Source: a virus
Strand: one strand, 5' to 3'
DNA: 64,000 bases
IMG/VR virus record: IMGVR_UViG_3300032038_000062
Location: 1-64,000 of that record
Shown one piece after another: positions 10,673 through 42,544 of the stretch; position 1 is the first letter of the stretch, and every line of letters starts with the position of its first letter. A program made the position numbers and the translations under genes. The notes under the pieces were generated by a model. The model worked only from the letters and a program-made list of their open reading frames with translations. It did not search any database and was not told the DNA's origin.

Positions 10673-10912
10673 ATGAATATTCAATTAATCAGTAATGTAA
10701 AAATTAATTTAGAACCTTCAGAACTTAATGCTATAAATACTACAAAAAAAGTTTTAGAAAGAATTGAAGAAATTATTGATAGCGTCAAGAATGCCAATTT
10801 TTGGGAGTTTTTAAGCGAATATTATGATAATGATATTATAGAACTGCTTGACGATTTCCAACAAGATGATAGGTTAGAACGCCGCATTAAAGAATATCTC
10901 TGGGAGATATGA
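10673..10912 (+). CDS. Hypothetical early protein
   Basis: 79 aa, RBS AAAGGAGGAG. Confidence 0.5.
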   Translation: MNIQLISNVKINLEPSELNAINTTKKVLERIEEIIDSVKNANFWEFLSEYYDNDIIELLDDFQQDDRLERRIKEYLWEI

Positions 10913-11037
10913 CGACGAGGAAGAAGATTTTTAATCTTCTTCTTTTTTCTTTAGACTTCAAAAGTCTAAACTATAATTGACAAAAAATTTTATTTATGAT
11001 ATAATATAAATACAAAAAAGGAAAGCTGGGAGAAAAA

Positions 11038-11166
11038 TGAAAGAAAAACTTAACGAAATCGAAAAAGAAATTAAAGAAAAAATGGAAGAAAGCATATATA
11101 ATGACGATATTTATATTACTGTAACTATCGTTTTCGAAGTATTACACTCTATATTAGACGATTAGG
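11038..11166 (+). CDS. Small early protein (42 aa)
   Basis: Own promoter TTGACA..TGATATAAT at 10978-11013, RBS AAAGGAAAG, ORF below the 60-aa track cutoff. Confidence 0.4.
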
Positions 11167-11270
11167 CGGTCGCCGCTTTGTGATTTAGACTTCTAAAGTC
11201 TAAATTTTTATTGACCTATTAAATATATTATGATATAATATAAATGTAATAAAGAAAGGAGATTGTTTTA

Positions 11271-11582
11271 ATGTGTAAAAAAACTAAATATAAAAATTAT
11301 CGAATTGGAAAGTATCTTTTCACTGTAGAAATAAAAAAAGGCTGTGACTGTTTTGGAGATTATTTTTACATCACCATAAGAGATAGACACGACGCGCCGC
11401 GGAACTTTTTTGAGAGAATTAAACTAAAATTTAAGAACGAATATGCTATTGGAGATTCTTGCTGGCGCCCACTTTTTGACAAAAAAAATTTTGAGCGCTT
11501 TATCCTTGATAAGTTAGATTTTATTGTAGACAATAAATTTAACTTAGAAGAAGCAAACATTTTATGGGAAAATCTCGAATGA
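11271..11582 (+). CDS. Hypothetical early protein
   Basis: 103 aa, RBS AAAGGAGA. Confidence 0.5.
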   Translation: MCKKTKYKNYRIGKYLFTVEIKKGCDCFGDYFYITIRDRHDAPRNFFERIKLKFKNEYAIGDSCWRPLFDKKNFERFILDKLDFIVDNKFNLEEANILWENLE

Positions 11583-11768
11583 GATTTTCTTTTTGATTTT
11601 CTTTTAGACTTACAAAGTCTAAACCCCTAAATTTTTTTTGAAAAAAGTATTGACTTTTTTATTAAAATAGTTTATAATATACTTGTAAGGTTGAGAAAGG
11701 AAAGAAACCTTAATGAAACCTACAAAATAAAAATTTGGGTTGCGACCTACGCAAGAAAGAGGTTTATT

Positions 11769-12116
11769 ATGGCAGACAAGTACACTCAGAGAAATTTTTT
11801 GACAGACGTTATCAACGGCAATATTACCGAACAGGTGACCGCCTACGCCGAGGAAAGACTTGCGAAACTTGACGAGAAGAACGAAAAGCGCAAGGCTGAA
11901 ACCTCCGCCAATCAGCTCAAAAATATCCAGCTCGGCGAGGATATTGTCGCCTTCGTTACCGAGAACGGCGCGCAGACTACTTCCGAGATTGCAAGACAGT
12001 TCGGTGTTTCTACTCAGAAGATTGCGCCTATCACCAACGCACTTGTGAAGGAAGGCAAGCTGACCGAAACCACAAAGACGGTAGACAAGAAAAAGTATAA
12101 GGCGTTTACAGTTTAA
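11769..12116 (+). CDS. Winged-helix DNA-binding protein, paralog B
   Basis: 115 aa from ATG 11769. About 60% identical to 8264..8616, with a conserved leader and stem-loop upstream. Confidence 0.6.
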   Translation: MADKYTQRNFLTDVINGNITEQVTAYAEERLAKLDEKNEKRKAETSANQLKNIQLGEDIVAFVTENGAQTTSEIARQFGVSTQKIAPITNALVKEGKLTETTKTVDKKKYKAFTV

Positions 12117-12237
12117 CCGCCGAGGGGTACGCAAGTACCCCGACTTTTTTTAGATTTTCTTAGACGTTGTAAGTCTAAGATTAAATTGACTTTATTTTAT
12201 TTTATGGTATAATATAAATAATGAAGGAGGTAATATA

Positions 12238-12636
12238 ATGAAAATTCAGTATATTGCAAATGACGGAAAAATTTTTGATAATGAGTTTGACTGTCGGGAA
12301 TATGAGTCAAAAAAACAAGTAGATGAATTTCTCAATAAAAGAGAGCTAATCTTCTTGTCACGCTCAGGAGAAGTTCTTTTCGGAGAGATTGACGATTGCG
12401 CCGAGAGAGCTACTTATATTTTTGTTAATAGCGAGGCGGCACTTCAAGCTCTTTGGGGAGAAAATGAATGTCAGCGAGAAATCCGCCCACCCGAAGAAGG
12501 ATATTGGTATTATGATTATGAGTATGAAACCTGGAGAAGCATGAAAACTCAGGTTGAAATATTAGAAAATGAATTAGCTGAACTCAATAAAATTTATGAC
12601 CGCTTTGATTATCTTATAAGAAAACCTCAAGACTGA
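12238..12636 (+). CDS. Hypothetical early protein
   Basis: 132 aa, RBS GAAGGAGG. Confidence 0.5.
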   Translation: MKIQYIANDGKIFDNEFDCREYESKKQVDEFLNKRELIFLSRSGEVLFGEIDDCAERATYIFVNSEAALQALWGENECQREIRPPEEGYWYYDYEYETWRSMKTQVEILENELAELNKIYDRFDYLIRKPQD

Positions 12637-12747
12637 GGTTTTCTTTTTATTTTATTCTTAGACTTCTAAAGTCTAAAGTTAAATTGACTTTTTTAATCTT
12701 CTGTGATATAATATAGTTACAGTAAAGGAAAGAGAAAGGAAAATAAA

Positions 12748-12990
12748 ATGAAAGTAAAAACTAATAAATTTTGGGAAATTATCAACTATCTGTGTTTGAT
12801 TGGTCTTGTTATCGGTCAAATTACCGTAGGCTATGCTTACATCTTTGCGCAAATTATCTATCTGATTTGTAATACCGCCTCCGTTATTCGTGATATTAAA
12901 TTGCGGTTGCCGCCCTCTAATATTGTTAGGGACGCTTGCTTTACTGCAATTACTATTGGCTTAATTATTATCCGAGCGTTTTTCGGCTAA
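12748..12990 (+). CDS. Small membrane protein (two TM)
   Basis: 80 aa, RBS AAAGGAAAA. Confidence 0.5.
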   Translation: MKVKTNKFWEIINYLCLIGLVIGQITVGYAYIFAQIIYLICNTASVIRDIKLRLPPSNIVRDACFTAITIGLIIIRAFFG

Positions 12991-13215
12991 AATATCCTCC
13001 TTTACTTTATAGGTAGGCGTGGGCAATAGTCCACGCTATCCTATTAAAATTAGTTTAGACTTCCAAAGTCTAAGCCCACTCGTTGGGCGGTTAGCATAGG
13101 CTAACTTTTATTTTCTTTGAAAAAACTATTGACAAAACCGAAAAAATATGATATTATATATATGTCAGTTAGAGAGCGAAGGCAAACCTAAATTGACAGA
13201 AAGGAAAGTGATAAT

Positions 13216-14110
13216 TTTGAATTTTGAAAACAAAATTGACCGAAGAAAAAAATATTATTTGGTTTTTGATTGTGAAACCGCGACTTTGCCCTTCGCGGCA
13301 ACCATTGAAGAACCAAAAGACAAACAAAAAATTGCTATTGCTAAACCATTAATTTATGACTTGGGATGGCAGGTAATTGACCGCAAAGGGAATGTATATT
13401 GCCGCCGCTCGTATTTAGTCAGCGAAATTTTTTCCGTTCCTGCGGTTTTTAATACCGCGTATTATGCAAGCAAGCGCCCGATTTATCTTGATAAATTGGC
13501 AAAAGGTGAAATTATCCTGACCGATTGGAAAACAGCCACTGCAAAACTAGAAGAAGATTTACAAAAGGTTGAAGCGGTCGGCGCTTATAACTCAATGTTT
13601 GACTATAAAAAAGCAATTCCATTTACAGAAAAATATATCAAGATGTTATATTCTCCATACTATTATAAATGGGAAGAAAAGCAAATTGAGCATTGCAAGC
13701 ACATTTTATCAACGCCATATTATAAAAGTGATAATGAATTTAACCCTGAGATTTTCGAATTTAGGGATAAACAATATGCACTTTTTGACCTTTGGGGGCT
13801 GAGTTGCCGCCACCTCTTAAACAATAATGAATACAAACAAACTTGCATTAATAACGAATGGAAAACGGCAAGCGGGAAATTTTTCAAAACAAGCGCAGAA
13901 ACCGCATTCAGGTTTTTAACAAAAAACAATGATTTTATAGAAAGTCACACGGCTATTGAAGATACTATAATTGAGAGCCAAATTTTGACCGAAATTATAA
14001 AGCGCACAAAAAACAAATTTGAATTGGGGATTATTTATTTTCCCTTCCGTGAACTCGGAACAGTTAAAGATTTTGAAAACACACACGACAATATTTTTGA
14101 TTTATTCTAA
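13216..14110 (+). CDS. DEDDh-family 3'-5' exonuclease (DnaQ-like), paralog A
   Basis: Exo I LVFDCETATLP, Exo II YNSMFDYKKA, Exo III HTAIEDTIIES. Start TTG or GTG near 13207-13216 after RBS AAAGGA. Conserved leader shared with paralog B. Confidence 0.7.
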
Positions 14111-14234
14111 AAGAAAAAGGTTACAGAAATGTAACCTTTTTCCTCCAAAACTACCTTAGACTTTGTAAGTCTAAACCCTATTTGACTTCTCTATAATTAT
14201 ATAGTATAATATAGATAATAAAGGAGGTAATAAT

Positions 14235-14597
14235 ATGGCAAGTCGTTCTCAATTAAGAGCTAAAATCCGTCAAAAATATCTAACCCAAATTCGTGATTTT
14301 CTCAAATCACAAGGCGAAGAAGTTTTACTGACAAAAAGTAACCAACTGGCGATTCCAACCTGTGATGACGAAAACAACGAAGAAACACTTACAATTACTT
14401 TTGCTGTCCCTCTCGGCTCTAAAGCAGATAATGAACCTTTTGACCCATACACCGCTGCGGAAGTTTACGCACAAAATACAGAAAATAAAAGGGTTGAGGC
14501 TGAAAAGAGAGCAAAAGCAAAAGCAGAAAAAATTAAAAGAGATAAGGAGTACAGAGAAAAACAAAAAGCAAACAAAAAGAAAGGAAAAGGCGCATAA
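14235..14597 (+). CDS. Lys-rich early protein, paralog B
   Basis: 120 aa; same architecture and KGKGA end as 9076..9468. Confidence 0.6.
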   Translation: MASRSQLRAKIRQKYLTQIRDFLKSQGEEVLLTKSNQLAIPTCDDENNEETLTITFAVPLGSKADNEPFDPYTAAEVYAQNTENKRVEAEKRAKAKAEKIKRDKEYREKQKANKKKGKGA

Positions 14598-14788
14598 GCC
14601 TTTTCTTTTTAGAAGAATTTAGACTTTAGAAGTCTAAATCTTATGCTGCGGCGGTTAGCATAGACTAACTAAAAAATTTTTTATAAATTTATAAAAAAGT
14701 ATTGACAAATTAAAAAATCTATGCTATAATTGTATTGTCAGTTAGGGAAAGACGTTAAATCTAAATTGACAGAAAGAGGTTGATAATT

Positions 14789-15670
14789 TTGAATTTTGAA
14801 AAAAAACTTGACCGCCGCCGCAAATACTACCTTGTATTTGATTGTGAAACGGCAACTTTACCCTACGCGGCAAATTTTGAGGGTAAGGCAAGACAGGCAA
14901 TTTCTATTGCTAAACCATTAATTTATGATTTGGGTTGGCAAGTGATTGACCGTCAAGGCAATATTTACCGCCGCCGTTCGTACCTTGTTAGCGAAATTTT
15001 CAGCGTCCCTGCGGTTTTCAATACTGCATATTACGCAAGTAAACGTCCGATTTATCTCGAAAAATTAAATAATAACGAAATTATCCTGACCGACTGGAAA
15101 ACAGCCACCGCAATATTAGAAAAAGATTTGCAAGAGGTTTGCGCCGTTGGTGCTTATAATTCAATATTTGACTTTAAAAAAGCGATACCATTTACAGAAA
15201 GATATATAAAAGCGTTGTACTCACCGCACTATTATAAATGGGAACGGCGGCAAAACGAAATCTGCGACCGAATCGCAAGCGGAGAAATTCAAGAGAATAA
15301 TCAGACTTTTGACCCAGAAAATTTTTTCTTTAGAGAAAAAAATTATCCGTTGTTTGACCTTTGGGGCTTAAGTTGTAAACACTTATTAAATAATGATGAT
15401 TATAAAAAATCTTGTATTATGAATAAGTGGGAAACGGCAAGTAAAAAATATTTCAAAACTTCGGCGGAAACTTCATTTAGATATTTAACAAAAAATGATG
15501 ACTTTGAAGAAGCGCACACAGCTATTGAAGATACAATAATTGAGAGCTTAATTTTTGCCGAAATTGCAAAACGTACTAAAAATAAATTTGAAATGGGAAT
15601 TATTTATTTTCCGTTTAGAATTTTAGGCACTGTCAAACAATTCAAGGAACTAAACGATATTTTCGATTAA
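14789..15670 (+). CDS. DEDDh-family 3'-5' exonuclease, paralog B
   Basis: About 70% identical to paralog A; motifs LVFDCETATLP / YNSIFDFKKA / HTAIEDTIIES. Start TTG at 14780 or 14789. Confidence 0.7.
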   Translation: MNFEKKLDRRRKYYLVFDCETATLPYAANFEGKARQAISIAKPLIYDLGWQVIDRQGNIYRRRSYLVSEIFSVPAVFNTAYYASKRPIYLEKLNNNEIILTDWKTATAILEKDLQEVCAVGAYNSIFDFKKAIPFTERYIKALYSPHYYKWERRQNEICDRIASGEIQENNQTFDPENFFFREKNYPLFDLWGLSCKHLLNNDDYKKSCIMNKWETASKKYFKTSAETSFRYLTKNDDFEEAHTAIEDTIIESLIFAEIAKRTKNKFEMGIIYFPFRILGTVKQFKELNDIFD

Positions 15671-15798
15671 AGAAAGAAAAGGTTACAGAAATGTAACCTT
15701 TTCCCCCCCAAAATTATTTTAGACTTTGTAAGTCTAAATCCTATTTGACTTCTCTATAATTATATAGTATAATATAGATAATAAAGGAGGCGAAGATA

Positions 15799-20679: not shown

Positions 20680-20760
20680 ATTTCCTTTCTTAACTTTTCT
20701 ATATATATTATATCAAAAAAAATATAAAAAATCAAATTAAAAAGCCCTCTCGTAAGTAAG
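20680..20760 (-). promoter_or_regulatory. Conserved minus-strand promoter TTGATT-N17-TGaTATAAT with leader ATATATAGAAAAGTTAAGAAAGG; rho-independent terminator hairpin (AAGCCCTCTCGTAAGTAAGAGGGCTT) at 20729-20758
   Basis: Reverse complement of 20686-20737 reads TTGATTTTTTATATTTTTTTTGATATAATATATATAGAAAAGTTAAGAAAGGAA then ATG. Confidence 0.65.
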
Positions 20761-20770: not shown

Positions 20771-21634
20771 TTACACATACTTGTCCAAGCCGAATTCCTT
20801 CATAATCTTCTCGATATTGAAGTTATTTTGCATACAATCCTCAAGGGTAATGTAAACGCTATTTTCATCGAGAATTTTGTTCTCTACCACATACTGATGA
20901 AGTTCATCGTGACTCAATTTTTTCATTATATCCGTACCGTAACCAAAACTATAACCATAGTCAGTTAAATTAGGAAGAGTTTCAAGATACTTAAATCCAA
21001 TTCTACGCTCCCAAGAAGCGTTACAAAGAGGAAAAGTAACTCGCTTCAAATCAAGCGGCTCTCGCCAATTCTTAACATCAACTGTACAGAACACATTTTC
21101 TTTACTTTGAGTTGCTGAATAGAGAAATGCTTTAACCGCAACTCGAATACCAGAAAGTTCAAGACGATTAATTATAGAACAAATTGCAATTCCGCCTTTT
21201 ACAAAATCTTGGGCATCTGTACCGCAACAACTATTATTAGCATAACCAATAGTAAGAACACGGTTCTTTCTCATTACTTGGTCACGAGTCATCATAGAAT
21301 TGGGAAGACCAAGAATAGCATTGGGAACACAAGGAGCAAAACCAACAATTCCAGTTTTCATACCGCCCGCATTGACCTTTAAATCCTTATTATTCCTTAC
21401 AACACCGCGGTCAATATCTTTAATTGGACCCTCCCAGCCCTTTTCAAGGAGATTAAATGCTTCTTCAAGACTTTGAGTTCCAGTCCAACTAGTATCACTT
21501 TTTCCAGAAGAGTGCTCGTCCGACATAGCCTTATTATTTTGCGTACGTTTTCCAAGAGTTTGGACAAGATTACGTACGCCAGAAAAGTGCTCAAATAACA
21601 ACTTACTCTTTGTTACTTCACTATAATCTCCCAA
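20771..21634 (-). CDS. Hypothetical protein, downstream partner of the AAA+ ATPase
   Basis: 287-aa ORF 12 nt after the ATPase gene. No clear MIDAS motif. Confidence 0.5.
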   Translation of the reverse strand: MGDYSEVTKSKLLFEHFSGVRNLVQTLGKRTQNNKAMSDEHSSGKSDTSWTGTQSLEEAFNLLEKGWEGPIKDIDRGVVRNNKDLKVNAGGMKTGIVGFAPCVPNAILGLPNSMMTRDQVMRKNRVLTIGYANNSCCGTDAQDFVKGGIAICSIINRLELSGIRVAVKAFLYSATQSKENVFCTVDVKNWREPLDLKRVTFPLCNASWERRIGFKYLETLPNLTDYGYSFGYGTDIMKKLSHDELHQYVVENKILDENSVYITLEDCMQNNFNIEKIMKEFGLDKYV

Positions 21635-21646: not shown

Positions 21647-22852
21647 TTAAATACAAGTTTTTAGAGCCTTATAATATTTATTGCTCTTATACTCCATATC
21701 GTTTGCGATGATGTTACGGTCATCAGTAGACAAGCCCTTCAAGAGAGAGATATTAAGAACAGTCTTAATATCCATAGTACCTTCGAGCTTAGCAATGCGC
21801 TCAATCGCACGATAGGTTGCAAGGTGATGGATATGTGCCTTTTGTACTGCCTTACGGAAATCGTGGATAAAGGTAATCAACTCGTTGTTGCCATTTGCAA
21901 CAGCTTCCTCAATCTTAGGAGAATAGTCAATCTCCATCAAGGCATACCGGTCAAGAGAAGCGGCGTCAAGCTGATAACGACCGGTATACTCAATATCGGC
22001 GCCAGTACCGTAAGTGTTACCCGCAGCGATTACTCGGAAATCTTCGTGCGCAGTAACCTGACCAGTAGGAAAGTCAAAGTAACCGTTTGCGATTGCCGCA
22101 TTCAAGATAATAAGAACTTCGGGAATAGAACCGTCCATCTCGTCGAGGAAGAACAAGCCGCCATCTTTAAAAGCCTTATAAAAGGCAGTTTCGTGGTAAT
22201 GACCGTTAGCGTCGATAAAACCAGTCAACTTATACTCCTGAGTTACAGCGTTGGTAAAATAGAAGTTCAAACCTAAACCAGCGGCTACTTGCTGTGCAAG
22301 TACGTTCTTACCAGTGCCAGCGGGCCCCGCCAAGAAAACGGGAATTGCGGCAGAAACAAGAGTGAGTACGTCATCAAACTTCTCGTGGGTTACGCCAGTA
22401 ATCTTATTAATTGCATTGGGAGTAACAATTTCATGGCGCTGAGGAAGAAAACCAAACTCGTCAATGAGTCTTTTACGAACTACAGGGTAAACTTCCTTAA
22501 AGATAGACTCAGTAGAAGCCTCCGCAACAGTCTTGAAGAATAGCTCTTCCAACTTGCCACCAAGACCACTGCTTTCTCCACCGGCGGGCACAGTAACACC
22601 AGACATAGGAACTCCATCATAGTTATGACGCATCTTTTCAAGAGCCTTTTCCGCAGCGTTCTTATGGAAAGCCGCACGCTCAATTACAGGAGCGGGCAAA
22701 CCTTTTCTACCAGCTTCAATGCTGTTAAACTTATTACGAGGGTCGTAGTAGTGTCCCTGAAAAAGCAAGTAAAGATTCTTGCCGCCCTTTGCGAACTCCT
22801 CAGTATCAATTACATAGGTAATATTATCTTTTGCATAAACTACAGTAAACAT
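21647..22852 (-). CDS. MoxR / CbbQ / CobS-like AAA+ ATPase (AAA_5 type)
   Basis: Walker A LAGPAGTGKN, Walker B LFFLDEMD, sensor region. About 170-aa N-terminal extension of unknown function. Confidence 0.7.
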   Translation of the reverse strand: MFTVVYAKDNITYVIDTEEFAKGGKNLYLLFQGHYYDPRNKFNSIEAGRKGLPAPVIERAAFHKNAAEKALEKMRHNYDGVPMSGVTVPAGGESSGLGGKLEELFFKTVAEASTESIFKEVYPVVRKRLIDEFGFLPQRHEIVTPNAINKITGVTHEKFDDVLTLVSAAIPVFLAGPAGTGKNVLAQQVAAGLGLNFYFTNAVTQEYKLTGFIDANGHYHETAFYKAFKDGGLFFLDEMDGSIPEVLIILNAAIANGYFDFPTGQVTAHEDFRVIAAGNTYGTGADIEYTGRYQLDAASLDRYALMEIDYSPKIEEAVANGNNELITFIHDFRKAVQKAHIHHLATYRAIERIAKLEGTMDIKTVLNISLLKGLSTDDRNIIANDMEYKSNKYYKALKTCI

Positions 22853-22981
22853 ATGTATTATCTTCTCCTTTCAGTATAGCCTTTTTATTTATTGCTTTCT
22901 TAACTTTTCTATATATATTATAACAGAAAAAATATAAAAAGTCAATATGTTATATTGCTTTTTTAATAAAAAGGCGGGAAA

Positions 22982-24925: not shown

Positions 24926-25034
24926 ATCATATTCTCCTTTATTTTCTATATATATTATATCAAAAAAAACGTATAAAATCAAATAAATAAATAAGGAGTT
25001 AGATGACTAACTCCTTACTTTAATATATTATCGC

Positions 25035-25835
25035 TTACTTTGAATCAATATCACCAATATCTACGATAGTGCCACCGTCCGTAGAAACCTTTGGCAACTG
25101 ACCATTCCACTTCTCGATTTCTTTATTCTTAATTACCTTATCTGTCAACGAATCGTTCAAAAGTTTATTTGCTTCGGCGTCACCTTCAGCTTTAATTTTT
25201 GCTGCTTCTGCCTCAGCCTGTGCATTTGTAATAGCGGTCTGCTTCTCAGTTTCAGCCTTCAAGAGTTGTTGCTGGGCAACCTGCTTCTCTTCAATCGCAT
25301 TAATGAAGGCATCTGAGAAATCAAAATCAACAATATTAACATCAGTAATATATAGACCAATCTCATTCAGCTTTTCATTAAGTCCAGTAACAAGTCCCTC
25401 AGAAATCAAAATACGATTAGTCACGCTCTGCTCAGCAGTATATTCCGATACAATAGCCTTTAGCACTTCATTTACTGCGGGCACAACAAGTACATTTTCA
25501 TAGTCCGCACCAATGTTCTTGAAGATACTATAACTCTTTGCACTGTCTACTCGATAGTTAATTGCCAATACCGTACTGACACTTTGAAGGTCTTTTGAGA
25601 ATGCTTCGGTATTAACTTCTAGCTTCTGAATACGGTTATCAATGTCTTCTACTGACTGCACAAAGGGCGCCTTAAAGTGGATACCCTCTGAGAGAACACC
25701 TTCCTGTACACTGCCCATCGTAACTACGACGCCAGTATGACCGGGACTTACAATCGTAAAACAGTTGAACAGAACGATGATTGCGGCAATCGCAATGACT
25801 CCAATAACAATAACTCGCTTAATCAATTTCTCCAT
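25035..25835 (-). CDS. SPFH / Band-7 (prohibitin, HflC-like) membrane protein
   Basis: N-terminal TM then an SPFH-like region (GHTGVVVTMG...) and a C-terminal coiled coil (QQLLKAETEKQTAITNAQAEAEAAKIKAEGDAEA). Confidence 0.7.
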   Translation of the reverse strand: MEKLIKRVIVIGVIAIAAIIVLFNCFTIVSPGHTGVVVTMGSVQEGVLSEGIHFKAPFVQSVEDIDNRIQKLEVNTEAFSKDLQSVSTVLAINYRVDSAKSYSIFKNIGADYENVLVVPAVNEVLKAIVSEYTAEQSVTNRILISEGLVTGLNEKLNEIGLYITDVNIVDFDFSDAFINAIEEKQVAQQQLLKAETEKQTAITNAQAEAEAAKIKAEGDAEANKLLNDSLTDKVIKNKEIEKWNGQLPKVSTDGGTIVDIGDIDSK

Positions 25836-25919
25836 CTTATTAATTTCTCCTTTTTATTTAGTTTTAGTTTAAATGATGGTATGATTTACTTTTTAATTAA
25901 ATTTTAGATAACTCCTTTC

Positions 25920-26216
25920 TTAATATAAATCTTCACTATATAACTCGTTTTCAAGGCTATCGCGCTTTGCAACGAGAGTTGTAGTGCTTAATTGATGCCA
26001 CTCTTGAGCTTTTTCAAAAGCCTTATATCGGTCGTAAAAGATATTCCAATCATCAATAAAACCGTCTACCGTCGCGGTTACTTCCTTGTTCTTTATATCT
26101 GGTGAAAGCCGTTTGATATCTTCAAAAAGTTCATAACAATATGGGTGGCGGGCGCCGCAAACCATTAATTCCGTACCATCACGAAATTGAAATTTAACCG
26201 CCGCACTAACTAACAT
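25920..26216 (-). CDS. Hypothetical protein
   Basis: 98-aa ORF. Confidence 0.45.
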   Translation of the reverse strand: MLVSAAVKFQFRDGTELMVCGARHPYCYELFEDIKRLSPDIKNKEVTATVDGFIDDWNIFYDRYKAFEKAQEWHQLSTTTLVAKRDSLENELYSEDLY

Positions 26217-26226
26217 TTTAGCCTCC

Positions 26227-26532
26227 TTAATCTACCAATACGCCTGTTTTCGTATACCACCGATTTACAACTATGTGTTCTCGTCTTGGAAATACTTCAT
26301 AGGGCTGATTTTCATAGGAGTTTTCTTGATACTCTGTTAGACCAGCCTCCCACTCAACACAGAAGAACCTATTACCGACTTTAAAGATAGTTGTCATTGG
26401 CATCGTCCAGCGCTCTTTGTCGTAACTTTTTTGTTCATATTCTTCTAAAACATAGAACATATTTTCTATTTCTTCTTCGGAGAAGGTGTGACCGTTATCA
26501 AATTTTTCTAAAAAGTCCTTTTCATATTCCAT
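26227..26532 (-). CDS. Hypothetical protein
   Basis: 101 aa with the conserved promoter upstream. Confidence 0.45.
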   Translation of the reverse strand: MEYEKDFLEKFDNGHTFSEEEIENMFYVLEEYEQKSYDKERWTMPMTTIFKVGNRFFCVEWEAGLTEYQENSYENQPYEVFPRREHIVVNRWYTKTGVLVD

Positions 26533-26751
26533 ATTTATTTCCCTTTCTTAACTTTTCTATAATTATTATATCAAAAATATATAAAAAAGTCAAAAAGAAA
26601 AGGTTATCTTTTTAGTAAGATAACTAGTTTCTTTAAATATCTAACAATCCATTAATAAACAATAACAAAATTAATATAATAAACATACTAAGCCCAATCG
26701 TCTTCCATTAAAGTTCCACCGTTTTCTTCGAGCACTTTCTCTAATAACTCA

Positions 26752-28035
26752 TTACGGAAAGATTCCTGCATCTCTTCTGTATCCTCGCTTATATTCGTGG
26801 GGAAAGACAACTTCACCAATTCCATAGATATGATTCCTCCAAGAACTTACTATTAAAGCCACACTATATAATACTAAAGCAACGCAAAATACAACTTCAT
26901 AATTAAGTCCATTTTGTAATATAATTGCAGTAGTATTATTACCAGTTAATCCAGCAATAGCCCAAGCACTAAGCGCCAGTCCGTGGATTTCACTTACTTT
27001 TGAAAGTCCAAAATACTCTGTTAATAAGGCTGGTAATGTACTAAAACCGCCACCATAGCCAGCATTAACAACCAAAAGTAAAAGAACAATTATAAATGGT
27101 AGTATAGCTGAACTTCTAAATATAAGTGTAGAAATCAGCATAAAGATACAGCTAATAAAGATAATTTGATAAATTGTTTTTCTCGTTTTACAATGGTCAG
27201 ACAAGGTTGAGTAACCGATTCTGCCGCCAGCGTTAAATAAAGCAGTAATCATTGGAATTATAGCAGTCGCCGCAGCTAATCCAGTTAGATAAATATTGAT
27301 AATTTGTGTTTCATAGCTTATCAACATTAAACCACAATGGATATTAATAAAGAAGATAAGCCAAATTCTTCTAAAGTACCTATTCTTAAACATACTCAAA
27401 GAAAACTTTGGTATTTCTTTACTTTCAACCCAATCAATCGGTTTCTCTAATAAGAAATGACCGGTCATCATTATAATAAAATAAAAACCGCCTAAAATCA
27501 AGAACATTATCCAAATTCCAAACTGTGCGAGCAGCCAAGTCATAATGGGTGTGGCTATGGCTTTAGCTAAACCAAAACCAGCAATAGAAATGCCTGTTGC
27601 TAAACCCTTATTATCTTTAAACCATAGCATTAATGTTTTAACTGGTGAAAGATAACCTATTCCTAGTCCTATTCCCATTAATACACCATAGGATAAGTAA
27701 ATTCCTATAAGTGCTGGAATACCTTTTAATAATAGAATTGATAAACCAGTTCCTATCATACCACCGCTAAAGCATATTGCGGCGACAAGAGAAGATTTAT
27801 GAACATCTCTCTCAACATATCGTCCTCCAAAAGCCGCGGACATTCCCAAAAAGAAAATTGCTATTGAGAAAGCCCAGCCAACTGCAAATGGAGAAAGATT
27901 AACGTATTGCGCTATTTGGTCTTTAAAAGTAGACCAACAATATACTGTTCCTATTGAGCAGTGGATTAATAATGCTGGTATCGCGCCATTTAATATTTTA
28001 TTCCGTGTCATTATTCCTCCTTTATTCATATTCAT
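26752..28035 (-). CDS. MFS-type transporter (12 TM, OFA-like)
   Basis: 427-aa polytopic protein with MFS-like hydropathy periodicity. Confidence 0.65.
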   Translation of the reverse strand: MNMNKGGIMTRNKILNGAIPALLIHCSIGTVYCWSTFKDQIAQYVNLSPFAVGWAFSIAIFFLGMSAAFGGRYVERDVHKSSLVAAICFSGGMIGTGLSILLLKGIPALIGIYLSYGVLMGIGLGIGYLSPVKTLMLWFKDNKGLATGISIAGFGLAKAIATPIMTWLLAQFGIWIMFLILGGFYFIIMMTGHFLLEKPIDWVESKEIPKFSLSMFKNRYFRRIWLIFFINIHCGLMLISYETQIINIYLTGLAAATAIIPMITALFNAGGRIGYSTLSDHCKTRKTIYQIIFISCIFMLISTLIFRSSAILPFIIVLLLLVVNAGYGGGFSTLPALLTEYFGLSKVSEIHGLALSAWAIAGLTGNNTTAIILQNGLNYEVVFCVALVLYSVALIVSSWRNHIYGIGEVVFPHEYKRGYRRDAGIFP

Positions 28036-28321
28036 ACATCACATCATAACCGCGTGATTCTAAAAAATCATATATTTCCTTTGCCGCGCGACCTAATACT
28101 TCATAGGTTCTTCCCTTTCCATAAGAATCTTTCCATTCTATTATATATTGGAATTTTTCTGCAAGTTGTATATTATCTTTTACATCTTTTATAAAATTAT
28201 ATAAAGCTTTATGTCTAAAGGTACTTCTTTGACCTATTTCATAATAAACTTCAATATTGTATTCATAAATCGGTGGATGAAGGCTTACAGCTGGTGTTAT
28301 TATAAGGGTATATTCATTCAT
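28022..28321 (-). CDS. Small protein, Y-D-x-L-x-x-x-G-x-D-V family member 1
   Basis: C-terminal KEIYDFLESRGYDVMYEYE. Confidence 0.5.
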   Translation of the reverse strand: MNEYTLIITPAVSLHPPIYEYNIEVYYEIGQRSTFRHKALYNFIKDVKDNIQLAEKFQYIIEWKDSYGKGRTYEVLGRAAKEIYDFLESRGYDVMYEYE

Positions 28322-28704
28322 ATTTCCTCCTCACCAAATGGTAAATCAAGGGTTATTTTTTCTACAATACGTTCATCTGTTAAAATTACATCAAAATTCT
28401 CTTTAACTAACCAATCATAAATTTCCTCTTGAAAGTCTGTATTGCTATTAGATATATTTACAATACGATATTGTAAGTCAAAATGAGCACGGGCATATTC
28501 TTTAAATTTATTTAAACACACTTGACGGTCTTTAGAAGGATAAAATGTTTCGTCAAAAATACTACCAATTAATGGCATGACGTGAATAAAATAGCATTCT
28601 TCTGTGAAAGTACCATCAACTTGCACTATATATTTACTAAATTCCTCCCCAACTCTTTTTATGAGGTCAGATTTAGTTATAAGAGTAATTTTATTTTCTT
28701 CCAT
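28318..28704 (-). CDS. Small protein, family member 2
   Basis: C-terminal EEIYDWLVKENFDVILTDE. Confidence 0.5.
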   Translation of the reverse strand: MEENKITLITKSDLIKRVGEEFSKYIVQVDGTFTEECYFIHVMPLIGSIFDETFYPSKDRQVCLNKFKEYARAHFDLQYRIVNISNSNTDFQEEIYDWLVKENFDVILTDERIVEKITLDLPFGEEEI

Positions 28705-28706
28705 TA

Positions 28707-29018
28707 TTACACCTCAAACAGTACATCATTCTCGTGTTCTATCAATATATTATAAACTTCATTTATAAAATCTATCTCTTCTTTTGGGCTATCCTTTCTT
28801 GTTACGATAATAAAGGTGTATTGAGGAAGTGATATCGCCGCAGTCGCTATTTCTCCTAATACCGCAGTTTTATGACGAGAAGACGATGACATAAAATTAT
28901 GAGTCCAACATAACAAGTTAATATGGTGAGCCGAAAAACCAACCGAATAAATTACATTATCAACGGTTTGTTGTGCCATTAGAATTAGTCTTATTTCTTT
29001 CTTTTCTTTGGGTTCCAT
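28707..29018 (-). CDS. Small protein, family member 3
   Basis: C-terminal NEVYNILIEHENDVLFEV. Confidence 0.5.
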   Translation of the reverse strand: MEPKEKKEIRLILMAQQTVDNVIYSVGFSAHHINLLCWTHNFMSSSSRHKTAVLGEIATAAISLPQYTFIIVTRKDSPKEEIDFINEVYNILIEHENDVLFEV

Positions 29019-29300
29019 TTAATCACCTTCACCTTCCCATAATAAAACATCTACTCCGCATTTTAATAAATGGTCATATACACGCATCGTAAACTGTATA
29101 TCTTTTTCGTCTTTATCTTCTGTTATTTTTATATAAATCTGTTTTTCTTTCCATTCACAAAAACACCGCTCTTCAAGAAGAGTTATTAAATTATCCATTG
29201 TATTAATCCAGCCATCAATGGAATAATCACTATAACACATAACACAGTATTCATTTTTATTGTGCAGACAAAAACAATTTAAGAGCACTTTATTCTCCAT
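29019..29300 (-). CDS. Small protein, family member 4
   Basis: C-terminal MRVYDHLLKCGVDVLLWEGE. Confidence 0.5.
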   Translation of the reverse strand: MENKVLLNCFCLHNKNEYCVMCYSDYSIDGWINTMDNLITLLEERCFCEWKEKQIYIKITEDKDEKDIQFTMRVYDHLLKCGVDVLLWEGEGD

Positions 29301-29321
29301 AAATACCAGTCATCTTCCTTC

Positions 29322-29675
29322 TTAGTCCTCATTAATGCAATCCAAAACCCTTTTATCAAACCCAAACCAACTCTTCCATCCTTCACCTACTATCGTTTCT
29401 ACTTTAATAGTAACTTCAAGGCTAGGAAAGTAAGTCCTTAATTCTTGTACAAAAGTTTCATACATTTCTTTAACATTTTCTAAATTGCTATCTGTAAAAC
29501 CAAAACCTAAAACAACTCGTTTATCGGTTGTATATTCAAAAACAGTATTGCAACCTGAAATACTGTTTATAGCATTAATAGTTTTAATGGCTTTGTCATT
29601 ACTCTTACGAAAAGCCTTTAAATCATAAATATTCTTAGCTAAATTAATATAACCATAAGTTGTATATAACGCCAT
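29322..29675 (-). CDS. Small hypothetical protein (divergent or unrelated member of the array)
   Basis: 117 aa; lacks the C-terminal motif. Confidence 0.45.
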   Translation of the reverse strand: MALYTTYGYINLAKNIYDLKAFRKSNDKAIKTINAINSISGCNTVFEYTTDKRVVLGFGFTDSNLENVKEMYETFVQELRTYFPSLEVTIKVETIVGEGWKSWFGFDKRVLDCINED

Positions 29676-29687
29676 GTTCTTCTCCTT

Positions 29688-30026
29688 TTATCTAAACCAA
29701 AATTCTTCTTTTATCATTACATCCGCGCCAAGCTCTATTAATGTGTCATAAACGGCATTTGCATTTGCCATATTTATTTCGCTATTCATAGTTACATAAT
29801 AATGAGCTTCTGGGTGTTTTTTATAATAACTTCTAATACTATCTGTAAAAAATTCTAGCATCGTATCAGAACTAGCCGAAAAGGTTTGATCGGGTTTTCC
29901 CGGTTTAGCCCAAAAAAGTTTCATCCCAGTTTCTTGGCAAACTACTGATACACTTAAATCTATTAGCACTGGGTCTTCTCCAGAAAAGAAATCTTTTATT
30001 CTAATGTCTTTTACTTCCCTCTCCAT
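29688..30026 (-). CDS. Small protein, family member 5
   Basis: C-terminal NAVYDTLIELGADVMIKEE, with HYYV motif upstream. Confidence 0.5.
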   Translation of the reverse strand: MEREVKDIRIKDFFSGEDPVLIDLSVSVVCQETGMKLFWAKPGKPDQTFSASSDTMLEFFTDSIRSYYKKHPEAHYYVTMNSEINMANANAVYDTLIELGADVMIKEEFWFR

Positions 30027-30030
30027 TTAA

Positions 30031-30402
30031 TTATCCCCTATAAATCTCTGGCGGCTCCCACGTCCATTCTATTTCTTCTAATAGTATTACGTCTGCTCCA
30101 ATATTTACTAAAAAATTATATGTTTCATCAATTAGACCTTGTTCTTCTATGGTACTGTCATTATAATAAACAATATAGTAATGTAATTTTGGGTTATGAT
30201 GATAGTAATCAGCAAGTCCTTTTTTAACAAGTTCTATTTTATTTAAATTATCCTCATGATAAGGAATAGTATTATCAAGAGAAGATAACCATTCCGCACC
30301 AAATATTTTTATTTTATTTTCATTACTGTCATTTATTATTAAAACGCTGTTCTGCATAAAATGGGGGTTATTTTTAAAAAAATCTTTTACCTCTACAAAC
30401 AA
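30031..30402 (-). CDS. Small protein, family member 6
   Basis: C-terminal DETYNFLVNIGADVILLEE, with HYYIV motif upstream. Confidence 0.5.
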   Translation of the reverse strand: MFVEVKDFFKNNPHFMQNSVLIINDSNENKIKIFGAEWLSSLDNTIPYHEDNLNKIELVKKGLADYYHHNPKLHYYIVYYNDSTIEEQGLIDETYNFLVNIGADVILLEEIEWTWEPPEIYRG

Positions 30403-30421
30403 CTCTCCACTTCCAATCTAA

Positions 30422-30940
30422 TTACATATCGTCTGAAAACTCTTTAAATAAATTTTGAAGTTTTTCTACCGTATCTCCAGGTTCAACTAGAAAAGTTAAC
30501 ACTTTATCACTTGCATTACTTTTCCAATTTCCCCTAACCTTTATTTGCTCATTTCGCGCGACGTCGCATAAAAACTTCAAATATTCCTCCCAAGTTAAAT
30601 CAGAATATTGTTCTCTTGATAGCTGTACATCACTAACAAAACCGTCAGAATAATTACTACACCAATGGTTCTGGAAACTTTCATAATAACCCCAAATCGT
30701 CGCGGCAAGTTTTAAATTATTATAATATGTTTCATTATCTTTTTTCTGCGCCCAATAATTACCACCACATAGCGGAATAGGCTTTATTTTTTCCTCCGCC
30801 GCTTTGAGTAATTTCTTGGTAGAATCTACTCGTTCAAAAAAACTAGGATAATTTTCCTTAATTAAATTTAAAATAAATCTATCCCTCAATAATTTTGCTA
30901 ATTCTTCGTCTGTTAAATAATGACTCTTCTTAATATCCAA
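30422..30940 (-). CDS. Hypothetical protein
   Basis: 172-aa ORF. Confidence 0.45.
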   Translation of the reverse strand: MDIKKSHYLTDEELAKLLRDRFILNLIKENYPSFFERVDSTKKLLKAAEEKIKPIPLCGGNYWAQKKDNETYYNNLKLAATIWGYYESFQNHWCSNYSDGFVSDVQLSREQYSDLTWEEYLKFLCDVARNEQIKVRGNWKSNASDKVLTFLVEPGDTVEKLQNLFKEFSDDM

Positions 30941-31183
30941 TCACTCTTCCTCCGCATAGCAAATACTGGTAACATCTTTTGAACGAATAGGATATATTTC
31001 TTTTTCTTTAAGATGATTTTCTTTTACTCCATATAAGACTTTTCCAATCTTTTCTTCAAGAACTTCCACTTTTAATTTCTTAATACCTTCTAAAGTCCAA
31101 CCATTGGGTGGTGTTGCTAATCGGTATAATGTACTATCGCCGCAGTTTACAAAGACTTGATATTTACTCTTATCCATTATCAA
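30941..31183 (-). CDS. Hypothetical protein
   Basis: 80 aa with the conserved promoter upstream. Confidence 0.45.
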   Translation of the reverse strand: MIMDKSKYQVFVNCGDSTLYRLATPPNGWTLEGIKKLKVEVLEEKIGKVLYGVKENHLKEKEIYPIRSKDVTSICYAEEE

Positions 31184-31278
31184 TTCCTCCCTATTATTCT
31201 ATATATATTATACTAAAAAATATATAAAAAGTCAAAAAAAAAGAGTAGCCATTACAGCTACTCCTTTCTAAAAGTGCC

Positions 31279-39752: not shown

Positions 39753-39826
39753 TGGCGGCGCCGCCCAGACTCGAACTGGGAAGGACAGAATCAAAATCTG
39801 TTATGTTACCATTACATCACGACGCT
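39753..39826 (-). tRNA. tRNA-Gln (anticodon TTG)
   Basis: Hand-folded cloverleaf; anticodon loop TTTTGAT; A1/C72 unpaired (Gln-like weak 1:72); CCA encoded. Confidence 0.55.
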
Positions 39827-39935
39827 ATATCTATGGACTTTCTGATAGATGGGCAACTTCAACGAGAGGTTTTCTATCTTTTTGGTATCCATTACGAGGG
39901 CTTATCCCAACCAACCTATCACGTGAGTAGGAAAT

Positions 39936-40028
39936 TGGCGACGCGGGTGAGACTCGAACTCACACACCACCGAAGTGATTACTCAGGGATTAGCAATCCC
40001 CTATCTTACCAATTAGGCTTACCGCGCC
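39936..40028 (-). tRNA. tRNA-Ser (anticodon GCT), type II
   Basis: Long variable arm, loop TTGCTAA, T-loop TTCGAGT, CCA encoded. Confidence 0.7.
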
Positions 40029-40198
40029 AAATCTTTATCTTTATAGATAATCATAGCAAAAAAGTTATATATATAATCCTCTCTTATTACAAACTTAATA
40101 TCTATAACTTCTTGCCTATCGCGCTCTAGTTTTTCAATTTCTCGGTTTATTTTGTCTTCAAGTGTAGTCGGTTTTTGTTCAATTAATATTTTTACTTT
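40019..40198 (-). CDS. Small hypothetical protein inside the tRNA array
   Basis: About 59 aa from MKVKIL with RBS GAGGTAA; preceded by a repeated 150-nt element. Confidence 0.3.
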   Translation of the reverse strand, partial: KVKILIEQKPTTLEDKINREIEKLERDRQEVIDIKFVIREDYIYNFFAMIIYKDKDLAR

Positions 40199-40366
40199 CA
40201 TGTTACCTCGCATTTATATAAAATGAAGTAGATAAGGATTTGCACCTTATATGTGCCTTAGTATCCTCCAAAAAAATCCCGTACATAACGTCTCGGTTTT
40301 AATTACAGTCTGTTACCCACAGCAACGCTTGCGTCTACCTATTCCGCCACTACTTCATATATCTAC

Positions 40367-40442
40367 TGGCACGCCTAGAGGGACTTGAACCCACAACCAG
40401 CTAGTTCGTAGCTAGCTACTCTTTCCATTGAGCTACAGGCGC
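40367..40442 (-). tRNA. tRNA-Arg (anticodon ACG)
   Basis: Anticodon stem GCTAG/CTAGC with loop CTACGAA; T-loop TTCAAGT. Confidence 0.7.
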
Positions 40443-41758
40443 ATATTAATCAGTCAAAGCAACAACAATAGCAGCCGCAACAGCCACAGAGAGAAACAAT
40501 CCTATTAAAATTCCTATAATAATAATGGGTATAAATATATTAACATAACCCAAAAATATTAAAATAGCAAAAAAGACGATAAAAATAAGGGAGATATATA
40601 CAATACTTTTGATTTGATTTCTTTTCATATAATCAATGATACGGTTAAATTTATTCTTCAATGCAGTATTCCTCTACAAAATAATGTATTCCACTCCTAT
40701 AAGCAATTGAATCAAGTTCTTCAATAGAAAGACCTTTTACTTTTTCTTCATCTATTGCCCAAACAGCAACAAGCGCATTCTCAGCCATTACTTCATCGAG
40801 CATCTCGTAAAATTTTTCCTCGTCTTCACTATCTTCTTCGCTAAGACAGTTGGTAGCTCTTTCTCCGAGAGAGGTCATAATATCATCGTAATCGTCCATA
40901 AGATTCATACATCTCTCAAAGCAGAAATCACAGGCGTCATTCATATCTTTAGCTTCGATAACGCCAGAGTCTTCAATGCCATGAAGACCTTGGTAGATAT
41001 TTTCTGTTGCATAGTAGTAAAATCTGCCCATACTATCCCTTCTTTCTTTTCTTCTTCTTTTGTCCTCCACGGAAAGAAATTTTGGTATCAAAACCGTGGT
41101 TAGTAATCTTATCATCATTAGTAAGTCCGATAGACTCTCTACGCTCAGCGGCGGTACGCTCTAAAGAAAAATATTCCTCTATTGCTAAATAGATGTCTAA
41201 GGGATTAATTAACTCAGCAAAGCCGCTTGCCTTTAAAAGAGGAATATCATAGATTATAGTACGCTCATTATTACGATAACCATACTCTACGCTTAAACTA
41301 TACTCCTTTGTATAATTACCCCTATTAATTGCATCAATAGCAATTTTATGCTTTCTATCTTCTGTCTTTGCTGACCAATGAGCAAACCAGTCATCGCCTT
41401 TTAACTTGATATAATTAAATGAAAGGAGTTTTCTATCGGTATTATAATTTGTCCAAGTTAAAACGAGATTAATAATATAATCTTTTACGTAGCCGTAGTC
41501 ATCTAAGTCAAGAACCTTAGCCTCAAACAACCAAAATCTATTACATACTTGGAGTAAAATATATGAAATTTGACCCAGTTTATTAATGCCGTAAGTAATA
41601 TAATTTAAACCTTTACAAACTTCGTCTTTAGTAAGAATAAAAGACCTAGTTCTATCGAAAGTTACTGTTTTATCGGGATAAACACCTTGTAAGTAATCAT
41701 AGAAGTCGTAATTCTTGTCTATAATCTTCACAATAGAACTCCTTTCTTCGATATTATT

Positions 41759-41835
41759 TGGAACCCCGACTCGGATTCAAACCGAGGACATACCGCTTAG
41801 AAGGCGGTTCTTCTGTTCAGGCTGAAGTACCGGGG
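41759..41835 (-). tRNA. tRNA-Arg (anticodon TCT)
   Basis: Anticodon loop CTTCTAA; T-loop TTTGAAT. Confidence 0.6.
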
Positions 41836-41844
41836 TATATAATG

Positions 41845-41918
41845 TGGACCACCAAGCGGGAGTTGAACCCGCGCCTTTTGGTTGGAAGCCAAATATTCTA
41901 CCGTTAAACTACTGATGG
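41845..41918 (-). tRNA. tRNA-Gly (anticodon TCC)
   Basis: Stem TTTGG/CCAAA with loop CTTCCAA; T-loop TTCAACT. Confidence 0.65.
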
Positions 41919-42211
41919 ATATTCCAGCTGTTAATAAACCGCTGGCGCTTCGAGCGGATTGCCTACGATAAAATCATTGAAAATTGTGTAGTAATCGCCT
42001 TCTGATACAAGCCACAGCTCTTCAAATTCAAGAGCATAAAGATTACCGATAATAGACTTTGCGCGAACCTTTAGACCATTGCCGTCCTCGACAAAAACCT
42101 CTTTATCACACTTTGCTGCAAGTGCGGTAATAGTTTCGGCTTCCTTTACTGTGTCCATATAGATTTTTGCTCTCATAAGAACCTCCTAAAAATTTTAATA
42201 CCCGAAAGGGC

Positions 42212-42294
42212 TGGTGGTAGTGACAGGATTCGAACCTGCACGCCGAAGCCATACCTTCTAAAAGTACGTTGTCTGCCAATTCCAGCACACTACC
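42212..42294 (-). tRNA. tRNA-Leu (anticodon TAG), type II
   Basis: Acceptor GGTAGTG/CACTACC, loop TTTAGAA, T-loop TTCGAAT. Confidence 0.55.
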
Positions 42295-42301
42295 TTATAT
42301 G

Positions 42302-42386: not shown

Positions 42387-42544
42387 ATATTCAAGACACT
42401 TTTATATAACTTTCTCATTCCTTAAATAAGTGTTGTATAAATAAAGTTGCTGTAAGTGTCTTTTATTTCTCTCTTAACTTTCTATATATATTATAACAAA
42501 TATATTATAAAAAAGCAAATTAATATATTGATTTATAAATAAAA

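Follow-up and report, generated by a model that had tools for sequence, protein, structure and literature searches.

We analysed a 64,000-nucleotide stretch of viral DNA (IMG/VR record IMGVR_UViG_3300032038_000062, positions 1 to 64,000), referred to here as the window, and focused on two membrane-protein genes on its minus strand between positions 25035 and 28035. One encodes a prohibitin-family SPFH/Band-7 protein. The other encodes a transporter of the major facilitator superfamily (MFS), predicted to be a monocarboxylate carrier. We consider it probable, at about 60%, that these two unrelated genes of bacterial origin were domesticated by an SPbeta/E3-like phage of a rumen Firmicute and are transcribed in its operons, where the prohibitin would organise the membrane of the infected cell and the carrier would alter the movement of fermentation acids. 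Both genes are intact and under selection, belong to recognised families of cellular origin, and are placed within operons of the phage.

Profile scans of the window identified a large terminase (TerL), a tail-fibre gene, a giant protein of 2292 aa and a sigma-like protein, together with 24 tRNA genes by ARAGORN (25 by Rfam) at 39.7-48.5 kb. TerL was 41% identical to the terminase of Geobacillus virus E3 and also matched YonF of the SPbeta type. Beyond the right edge of the window there is an SPbeta-like replication module; the adjoining 10 kb (L096) and a related phage (L182) show lysins, GIY-YIG, gyrase, YorF/YorH, DnaB and RecJ. In addition, nearly the same gene order was found in two independent assemblies, a 133-kb contig of a rumen metagenome (L001) and a 29-kb contig of a rumen metagenome-assembled genome (MAG; L002). 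By these sequence comparisons, the window belongs to a large SPbeta/E3-like Firmicutes phage of about 133 kb from the rumen. Megablast of the region against cultured phages gave no match, so that close relatives of the phage are lacking among them. The scans of the window revealed no lysogeny genes.

Both genes have cellular homologues and L002 was binned in a bacterial MAG, which could point to neutral passengers or to an assembly chimera with host DNA inside a phage contig. This explanation is highly improbable and can be regarded as effectively refuted. The order and the junctions of both genes were the same in three independent assemblies, and phage promoters and terminators flank the genes. 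Furthermore, the transporter gene has the codon usage of the phage, and its dN/dS values against L001 and L002 (0.12 and 0.03) rank with the lowest in the region.

The prohibitin gene and its origin

The prohibitin gene (25035..25835, minus strand) encodes a protein of 266 aa with an N-terminal transmembrane (TM) anchor, an SPFH domain and a long C-terminal helix. The protein matched the Pfam profile Band_7 (PF01145) with an E value of 1.2e-33 and 117 bits (cut-off 23.6) over profile positions 2-176 of 176. Among solved structures, the best matches were prohibitin-2 (2e-29, 106 bits, residues 15-232) and prohibitin-1 (3e-28, 103 bits), and the alignment to prohibitin-2 (PHB2) extended through its coiled coil. 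HflC (2e-9, 41 bits), erlin (40 bits), HflK (1e-6, 32 bits) and QmcA (27 bits) matched more weakly. The NCBIfam equivalog cut-offs for HflC/HflK were missed (TIGR01932, 60.5 vs. 134.4 bits; TIGR01933, 53.2 vs. 159.4 bits). Only one SPFH gene was present in the window, and a second gene for a K and C pair was not found. These comparisons place the gene in the prohibitin subfamily and not with HflK/C. The original prediction, made from the DNA letters alone, had described an HflC/prohibitin-like SPFH protein with a coiled-coil C-terminus. The Band_7 match and the PHB2 alignment bear out the family and the coiled coil, and of the two names only prohibitin survives the comparison.

The hydrophobic residues are 8-27, and the anchor covers about residues 2-24. 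The protein also matched PHROG 200 with an E value of 4e-56. We rejected the 'lipoprotein' label of this PHROG for the window protein, because it has no lipobox and its homologues do not conserve the anchor Cys.

A search of 5.8 billion proteins returned five SPFH clusters at 92-98% identity, all of the same phage group. Below these clusters came about 100 homologues at 75-84% identity, of which the named ones were 'prohibitin family protein [Ruminococcus sp.]' and, in one case, 'HflC protein [Ruminococcaceae bacterium]'. The one cellular locus examined (L097) was chromosomal, with glgC/glgD/glgA, a dockerin protein, a LytTR regulator, DUF1836-Band_7 and pheS/pheT. In the SPFH tree, the phage clade was nested within the cellular diversity, and mean identity was 82% between cellular proteins and 77% between phage and cellular proteins. 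The phage and host genes shared 69% of nucleotides and only 35% of third codon positions, so that synonymous sites are saturated. GC content was 0.40 in the phage gene, compared with 0.48 in the host gene and 0.35 for the phage mean. When codon usage was ranked over the 23 window genes of at least 200 codons, the prohibitin gene had the third highest divergence. Its dN/dS was 0.04-0.05, compared with 0.2-0.7 in neighbouring small genes. Judged from these data, the gene is a host-to-phage capture from a Ruminococcus-type chromosome. Since synonymous sites are saturated and the protein is nearly unchanged, the capture appears to be old and under strong purifying selection. The cellular origin that had been proposed for both genes is thereby upheld, and for the prohibitin gene a donor group can be named, the chromosomal Ruminococcus prohibitins at about 80% identity.

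This identity of about 80% also provides a lead to the host, and we conclude that the phage most likely infects a Ruminococcus. Such a lead is of value for an uncultured 133-kb rumen phage that is otherwise binned with an Erysipelotrichaceae MAG. L002 (CACYJD010000002.1, 29 kb), whose transporter is 99% identical to that of the window, was deposited within an 'uncultured Erysipelotrichaceae' rumen MAG, an assignment that is probably a binning artefact in view of the Ruminococcus-like SPFH gene.

HflK/C and PHB1/2, which belong to the SPFH family, are known partners of FtsH-type AAA proteases, and the outward topology predicted for the phage protein would fit HflK/C. The phage protein might work in the same way, caging or titrating host FtsH and protecting phage proteins or tuning the balance between lysis and lysogeny; modulation of FtsH-type proteases had been suggested in the original prediction. 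We regard this as rather unlikely, because the HflC/HflK cut-offs were missed, the single SPFH gene leaves no K/C pair, the host orthologue is not beside ftsH, and the window scans gave no lysogeny genes. We favour a role in organising the membrane, as set out below.

SPFH genes are frequent in phages. By tblastn, they were found in 353 of 50,697 records of cultured phages, and 275 of the 353 were from Staphylococcus phages; SPFH genes in T4-like phages were reported in 2006 (PMC1524935). In a Staphylococcus Twortvirinae phage, the gene order is holin, endolysin, membrane protein, prohibitin, transglycosylase; in Faecalibacterium phage Toutatis, the neighbours of the SPFH gene are small genes of unknown function. 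The window gene is a further member of a well-populated phage family and is notable mainly as a clue to the host. Both proteins had been called unusual in phages. This does not apply to the prohibitin, but it does apply to the transporter, for which the cultured phages gave six weak matches at about 25% identity, all in unannotated records, and no credible homologue.

The transporter, its binding site and its distribution

The transporter gene (26752..28011, minus strand; open reading frame (ORF) to 28035) encodes a predicted 12-TM SLC16/OFA-like monocarboxylate carrier. The ORF has 427 aa. The true start is probably the ATG at 28011, which gives 419 aa, because a GGAGG ribosome-binding site can be read at 28016..28020, the stop codon of the preceding gene lies at 28022-28024, and all close homologues have 419 aa. 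The ORF matched MFS_1 (PF07690) with an E value of 8.9e-24 and 84.5 bits (cut-off 33.4), so that the MFS assignment is confirmed by profile as well. The scores of both the Band_7 and the MFS_1 match lie well outside the range of chance. The AlphaFold model (35 homologues; pLDDT 81.8, pTM 0.81) has 12 helices in a 6+6 arrangement, in agreement with the number first predicted, and a disordered tail from residue 394; tail residues 394-419 are not conserved. Foldseek returned 417 MFS-type matches in the PDB at E<=1e-3. SfMCT and OxlT came first (TM-score 0.75-0.85), ahead of human MCT1, MCT2, MCT8 and MCT10. By sequence, the only solved relatives were OxlT (3e-18) and SfMCT (4e-13).

Residues were mapped by HMMER alignments to SfMCT and OxlT, read against the published sites (PMC6573034; PMC10070484). 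In SfMCT, the Asn-x3-Arg of TM8, the Tyr of TM4 and the Tyr/Phe of TM10 bind carboxylate and hydroxyl groups (PMC6573034). The TM8 motif of the window protein, N260-x3-R264, corresponds to N268/R272 of OxlT and N276/R280 of SfMCT. Likewise, Y120 corresponds to Y119 of SfMCT (TM4), and Y319 and F323 correspond to Y331 and F335 (TM10). In OxlT, Lys355 binds the second carboxylate of oxalate and is needed for transport; Lys355 and Gln34 are conserved in the OFA family, Gln34 strictly (PMC10070484). The window protein has W350 at the position of Lys355 (Cys362 in SfMCT) and V23 at that of Gln34 (Leu28 in SfMCT). R264, N260, Y120, Y319, F323, W350 and V23 were invariant across 35 phage and cellular homologues, and all residues invariant across these homologues are retained in the window protein. 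Since the SfMCT-like site is kept and the second basic residue is missing, we predict that the substrate carries one carboxylate, a small monocarboxylate (lactate-, formate- or pyruvate-like) and not a dicarboxylate. By its profile scores, the protein resembles the SfMCT type but is not assignable as an L-lactate transporter.

We compared the transporter with homologues from phages and cells. Sixteen clusters at 93-99% identity belonged to the same phage group, and all others were at most 66% identical. The gene has a third-position GC content (GC3) of 0.25 and the third lowest codon divergence among the 23 ranked genes. Comparison of GC and codon usage gave different outcomes for the two genes, moderately atypical for the prohibitin and phage-like for the transporter. 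The phage-like codon usage and GC3 indicate long residence in the phage, and the gene is best described as an old, domesticated and functional phage gene and not as a recent insertion. It is an intact transport gene under strong purifying selection in a confirmed phage context, that is, an auxiliary metabolic gene.

Three homologues at 62-66% identity on long contigs were checked, and all three lie in phage genomes unrelated to the window phage. The first (L090) is beside YopX, DUF551 and a nucleoside deoxyribosyltransferase; the second (L092) is beside DNA polymerase III alpha, NrdD, NrdG, dUTPase and SPbeta-type tail genes; and the third (L094) is beside DNA ligase and methylases. Most of the closest non-self homologues (92 of 104) were nearest to these three phage types. 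IMG/VR contained seven further viral contigs with homologues at 43-61% identity, and the JGI metagenomes contained more phage-like loci amid a cellular majority. Taken together, transporters of this family stand in unrelated phage contexts on L090, L092, L094, L082-L088 and L103-L111, and the family recurs in at least five unrelated rumen phage contexts. Rumen Clostridia also carry true chromosomal copies. In Ruminococcus sp. FC2018, for example, the gene has ABC-transporter and arginine-biosynthesis genes as neighbours and shares 73-75% identity with the phage copies of L090, L092 and L094. In a crude neighbour-joining tree, a long branch separated the window clade from the other phage clades, which suggests several separate captures by phages.

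Each structural gene of L092 (8986-13077, minus strand) has 2-13 TAG codons in frame, and none occurs in the replication genes, nrdD or the transporter gene of this phage. By sequence, this pattern is a signature of amber-codon recoding confined to the late genes, and the transporter gene would lie in the standard-code (early) part.

The gene contexts also bear on the substrate. On L092/L093, L084, L083, L088, L085, L108 and L111, the transporter gene is directly downstream of nrdD-nrdG (intervals L092 3285-7254, L084 79-4001, L085 7446-11161, L088 7254-11167 and L083 4443-11146). A carrier in this position might import or retain formate as the hydrogen donor for NrdD, the class III ribonucleotide reductase (RNR) of the phage. 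Four adjacent NrdDs carry the T4/E. coli-like finger loop PxMGCRSFL, which we take to be of the formate type. The nearest solved relatives of the transporter bind formate or lactate, and most characterised class III RNRs use formate as their reductant (PMC4493059). For the window phage, we consider this explanation improbable. No NrdD was found in the 64-kb window or in the approximately 20 kb examined on its right, about 40-50 kb of the genome being outside the scan, and the genes ahead of the window transporter are nine small, unrelated ones. An adjacent nrdD is also missing from most phage contexts (L090, L094, L082, L103-L107, L135 and L137). Two adjacent NrdDs have SCCR/MCCR-type loops, and one is fused to glutaredoxin and would not need formate. 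Finally, fermenting hosts produce formate internally. The broader prediction of a small monocarboxylate carrier covers lactate, formate, pyruvate or another small acid. The same nrdD-transporter adjacency was seen on the contig of a bacterial isolate (L009), where NrdD is fused to a glutaredoxin domain.

Operon placement and proposed roles

The conserved promoter of the original prediction was confirmed: TTGAYT-N16-18-TATAAT, close to the sigma-A consensus, occurred in 23 copies in the window, compared with 0.4 expected. The spacer is T-rich, 17 nt long and often opens with TTTTTATA; TG often precedes TATAAT, and the extended -10 (TGATATAAT) is frequent. The copies were spread over 6579-15773 on the plus strand and 20707-60348 on the minus strand. 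Eleven of them, at 6.5-16 kb on the plus strand, stand before one small gene each, and this stretch looks like a host-takeover or early block. Minus-strand copies near the two genes were found at 31207-31235, 26565-26593, 24954-24982, 22917-22945 and 20707-20735, and copies within the tRNA array at 43963-43991, 45347-45375, 47345-47373 and 48952-48980. The pattern scan of the window found no such promoter ahead of the structural genes (49-60 kb and 0-5 kb) or the terminase block.

The prohibitin gene is the last of a three-gene operon. Its sigma-A-type promoter (26565..26593, minus strand; TTGACT-N17-TGaTATAAT), found by pattern and promoter scans and identical in L001 and L002, lies 730 nt and two genes before the prohibitin gene. 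Both intervening genes are small phage genes on the minus strand. The first (26227..26532, 101 aa) matched phrog_6343 (1e-6) and is conserved in L001 and L002. The second (25920..26216, 98 aa) matched phrog_839 (1.5e-14) and has a dN/dS of 0.04; its L001 orthologue has the Pfam domain T4_Y16D. An intrinsic terminator (24989..25020, minus strand) closes the operon with a 14-bp stem followed by a T-run (-18 kcal/mol, z -6.2).

The transporter gene is the tenth and last gene of an operon driven from a sigma-A-type promoter at 31207..31235 (minus strand; promoter scans), 3.2 kb and nine genes before it. Terminator scan and folding energy indicated a terminator directly upstream of this promoter (31237-31269, minus strand). 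The nine small genes upstream of the transporter (28022..31183, minus strand) are tightly packed, with gaps of 0-21 nt or overlaps. Between the two operons there is an AT-rich hairpin with a T-run (26603..26624, minus strand), whose sequence is kept in L001 and L002. We rejected it as a true terminator, since its folding was non-significant (-8.8 kcal/mol, z -0.6); it may be leaky, and read-through between the operons is possible. The regulatory DNA of both operons was 89-98% conserved, compared with 81% overall.

Since the sigma-A-type promoters are missing from the structural genes, both genes more likely belong to an early or accessory class transcribed by the sigma-A polymerase of the host, by analogy with phages that have their own sigma factor. 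The region is non-structural, and the late placement given in the original prediction does not agree with this promoter distribution. The prediction had also noted that neither gene has the conserved promoter immediately upstream. This is literally true, the nearest being the two promoters described above, but it is no evidence for the moron-like acquisition proposed from it, as a moron typically brings its own promoter. The prohibitin gene stands in a cassette with promoter and terminator and has moderately atypical codon usage; the cassette is shared with two phage genes, and the promoter is the phage standard. The transporter gene has no promoter of its own, is typical in composition and was present in all relatives seen.

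Seven consecutive genes of the transporter operon (28022-30402, minus strand; 93-128 aa) form a weak tandem paralogue family at 13-26% identity. They share a C-terminal motif, approximately YI(V/I)..DS....(V/I)Y(D/N).L...G.DV(M/I/L)..E, and evolve fast (dN/dS 0.2-0.7). The two of the seven that were scanned (28022-28321 and 28318-28704) had no Pfam or PHROG match. In addition, a candidate gene for an acidic protein of 45 aa (26688..26825, minus strand) overlaps the last 74 nt of the transporter ORF in another frame. It has GGAGG 9 nt before its ATG and is intact in L001 and L002. Beyond the transporter stop, 9 of 10 substitutions fall at third codon positions, and we consider it a probable real gene.

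The following scheme is our proposal for when the two genes would be expressed, how their products would be placed in the membrane, what the carrier would move and in which direction, and what the phage would gain. The host RNA polymerase would transcribe both operons from the consensus sigma-A promoters. The prohibitin would insert through its single N-terminal helix, with its bulk facing outward from the membrane as in HflK/C, a topology suggested by the short basic N-terminus. It would then assemble into rings or cages that form membrane microdomains, on its own or together with the prohibitin of the host; mixed rings are possible because the two proteins are 80% identical. Such assemblies may stabilise or organise the membrane of the infected cell and could shield membrane proteins from FtsH-type quality control. 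The transporter would add monocarboxylate carrier capacity and alter the export or uptake of a fermentation acid during replication. This change might sustain glycolytic flux, pH and proton-motive force, or the supply of reductant. We rejected a functional link between the two proteins, since other phages carry the transporter without an SPFH gene and the ages of the two genes differ sharply.

Both products are membrane proteins, probably expressed from host-type promoters, and SPFH genes are widespread in virulent phages, the Twortvirinae copy lying in an envelope/lysis cluster. One or both proteins might act at the membrane to exclude superinfecting phages or to counter defence, for example by keeping out the DNA of a second phage; superinfection exclusion had been suggested for the SPFH protein in the original prediction. 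PADLOC defence models gave no significant match for the prohibitin, the transporter or eight neighbouring genes, and no support for exclusion was found in the literature. Furthermore, the near-complete conservation of the substrate site argues that the MFS protein transports. Exclusion is thus a quite unlikely explanation, and membrane organisation and acid transport remain our preferred roles.

Several observations weigh against these preferred roles. First, for the prohibitin, the AlphaFold model was of low confidence (pLDDT 63), too low for a fold search, although its helices (2-24 and 175-237) agree with the anchor and the long C-terminal helix. The window gene is not beside a holin or endolysin, unlike the Twortvirinae copy, and the literature search returned no experimentally supported function for any phage SPFH protein. 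In addition, the transporter missed the NCBIfam cut-offs for SfMCT (NF049980, 236 vs. 320 bits), OFA (TIGR00890, 131 vs. 375 bits) and OxlT (TIGR04259, 81 vs. 335 bits), and three pocket residues of SfMCT are altered in it (L145F, F359L and L28V). The neighbours of its cellular homologues (acetyltransferase, beta-galactosidase, ABC and GGDEF genes) gave no clue to a substrate or pathway. Finally, promoter type is the single indication of early timing, and some SPbeta-like relatives are temperate, so that expression as conversion genes of a prophage is possible.

A wider reading is that SLC16/OFA-like carriers are recurrent, previously undescribed auxiliary genes of rumen phages, with which several unrelated large phages would re-route a fermentation acid across the membrane of the infected cell and, in some lineages, feed formate to the class III RNR for dNTP synthesis. 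We put this forward as a speculative and rather doubtful extension. If it is true, infection would change formate and lactate exchange in the rumen and hence the substrate supply to methanogens and lactate users. More generally, carriers that move formate or lactate would have a bearing on fermentation balance and methane precursors.

Other genes of the window and comparison with known systems

The tRNA array (39753-48500, minus strand) is dense, GC-richer and ORF-poor. We rejected stop-codon recoding as an explanation for the scarcity of ORFs at 40-48.5 kb, this stretch being the tRNA array itself. The tRNA at 43764-43837 was called with a four-base anticodon 'gtca' and may be a plain tRNA-Asp(GTC). 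The Rfam scan found nothing in 17-39 kb and elsewhere solely tRNAs and one small RNA (sRNA), a 'skipping-rope' match (RF02924) between tRNA genes at 44432-44512 on the minus strand (56.5 bits; gathering 36.7). An AAA_5 (MoxR/CobS-like) ATPase gene (21647-22852, minus strand; phrog_249) is paired with a DUF7192 gene (20771-21634, minus strand). The ATPase gene has the fourth highest GC content in the window (0.44), strongly atypical codon usage and a dN/dS of 0.04, and the pair may be another captured or specialised module. The giant ORF of 2292 aa (50538-57416, minus strand; phrog_14959) has a C-terminal DUF6273 and adjoins the tail-fibre gene. We take its size to be similar to that of SPbeta-type giant tail proteins.

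Among known systems, the nearest to the phage SPFH protein is the chromosomal Ruminococcus prohibitin (e.g., P0135, in the DUF1836-Band_7 operon). The two proteins align colinearly at 79-82% identity and have the anchor, the domain and the coiled coil in common. The phage protein is shorter by about 14 cytoplasmic residues at the N-terminus and by 5 residues at the C-terminus, and it shares its operon with phage-type genes, unlike the protein of the DUF1836-Band_7 operon. The phage prohibitins of PHROG 200 (Faecalibacterium phage FP_Toutatis gp21, YP_009797458.1, and Twortvirinae) have the same general plan of about 270 aa, a single-pass N-terminal anchor, Band_7 and a coiled coil, and they occur in large Firmicutes phages. 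However, they are only 28-36% identical to the window protein (45% for an unannotated faecal contig) over about 85% of its length. The window protein is far nearer to the host prohibitin (about 80%) than to any phage copy and is therefore an independent capture. Eukaryotic PHB1/PHB2 and E. coli HflK/HflC have the SPFH fold and the ring-forming coiled coil in common with it, but they are heteromeric pairs, whereas the phage has a single SPFH gene.

For the transporter, the best structural match is SfMCT, a bacterial SLC16-type L-lactate transporter (PDB 6HCL, 6G9X). Identity is about 22%, and the carboxylate-binding Arg/Asn/Tyr/Tyr/Phe are conserved. OxlT, the oxalate:formate antiporter (PDB 8HPK; OFA, TC 2.A.1.11), is the best PDB match by sequence and shares the TM8 motif N-G-G-x-R. 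Of the two basic site residues of OxlT, the Arg is kept (R264), but Lys355 is replaced by Trp350, and Gln34 is replaced by Val23. Neither the cultured phages nor the literature searched yielded an MFS carboxylate carrier in a credible context. Aeromonas phage 44RR has an ORF for a sodium:solute symporter (PMC1524935), likewise a host-type secondary transporter in a large phage but from another superfamily. By itself, the presence of such host-derived membrane genes in a large phage is nothing out of the ordinary. The transporter is a known kind of auxiliary gene, a host-type secondary carrier, of a class that was absent from the cultured phages and the literature searched and that recurs in rumen phage lineages.

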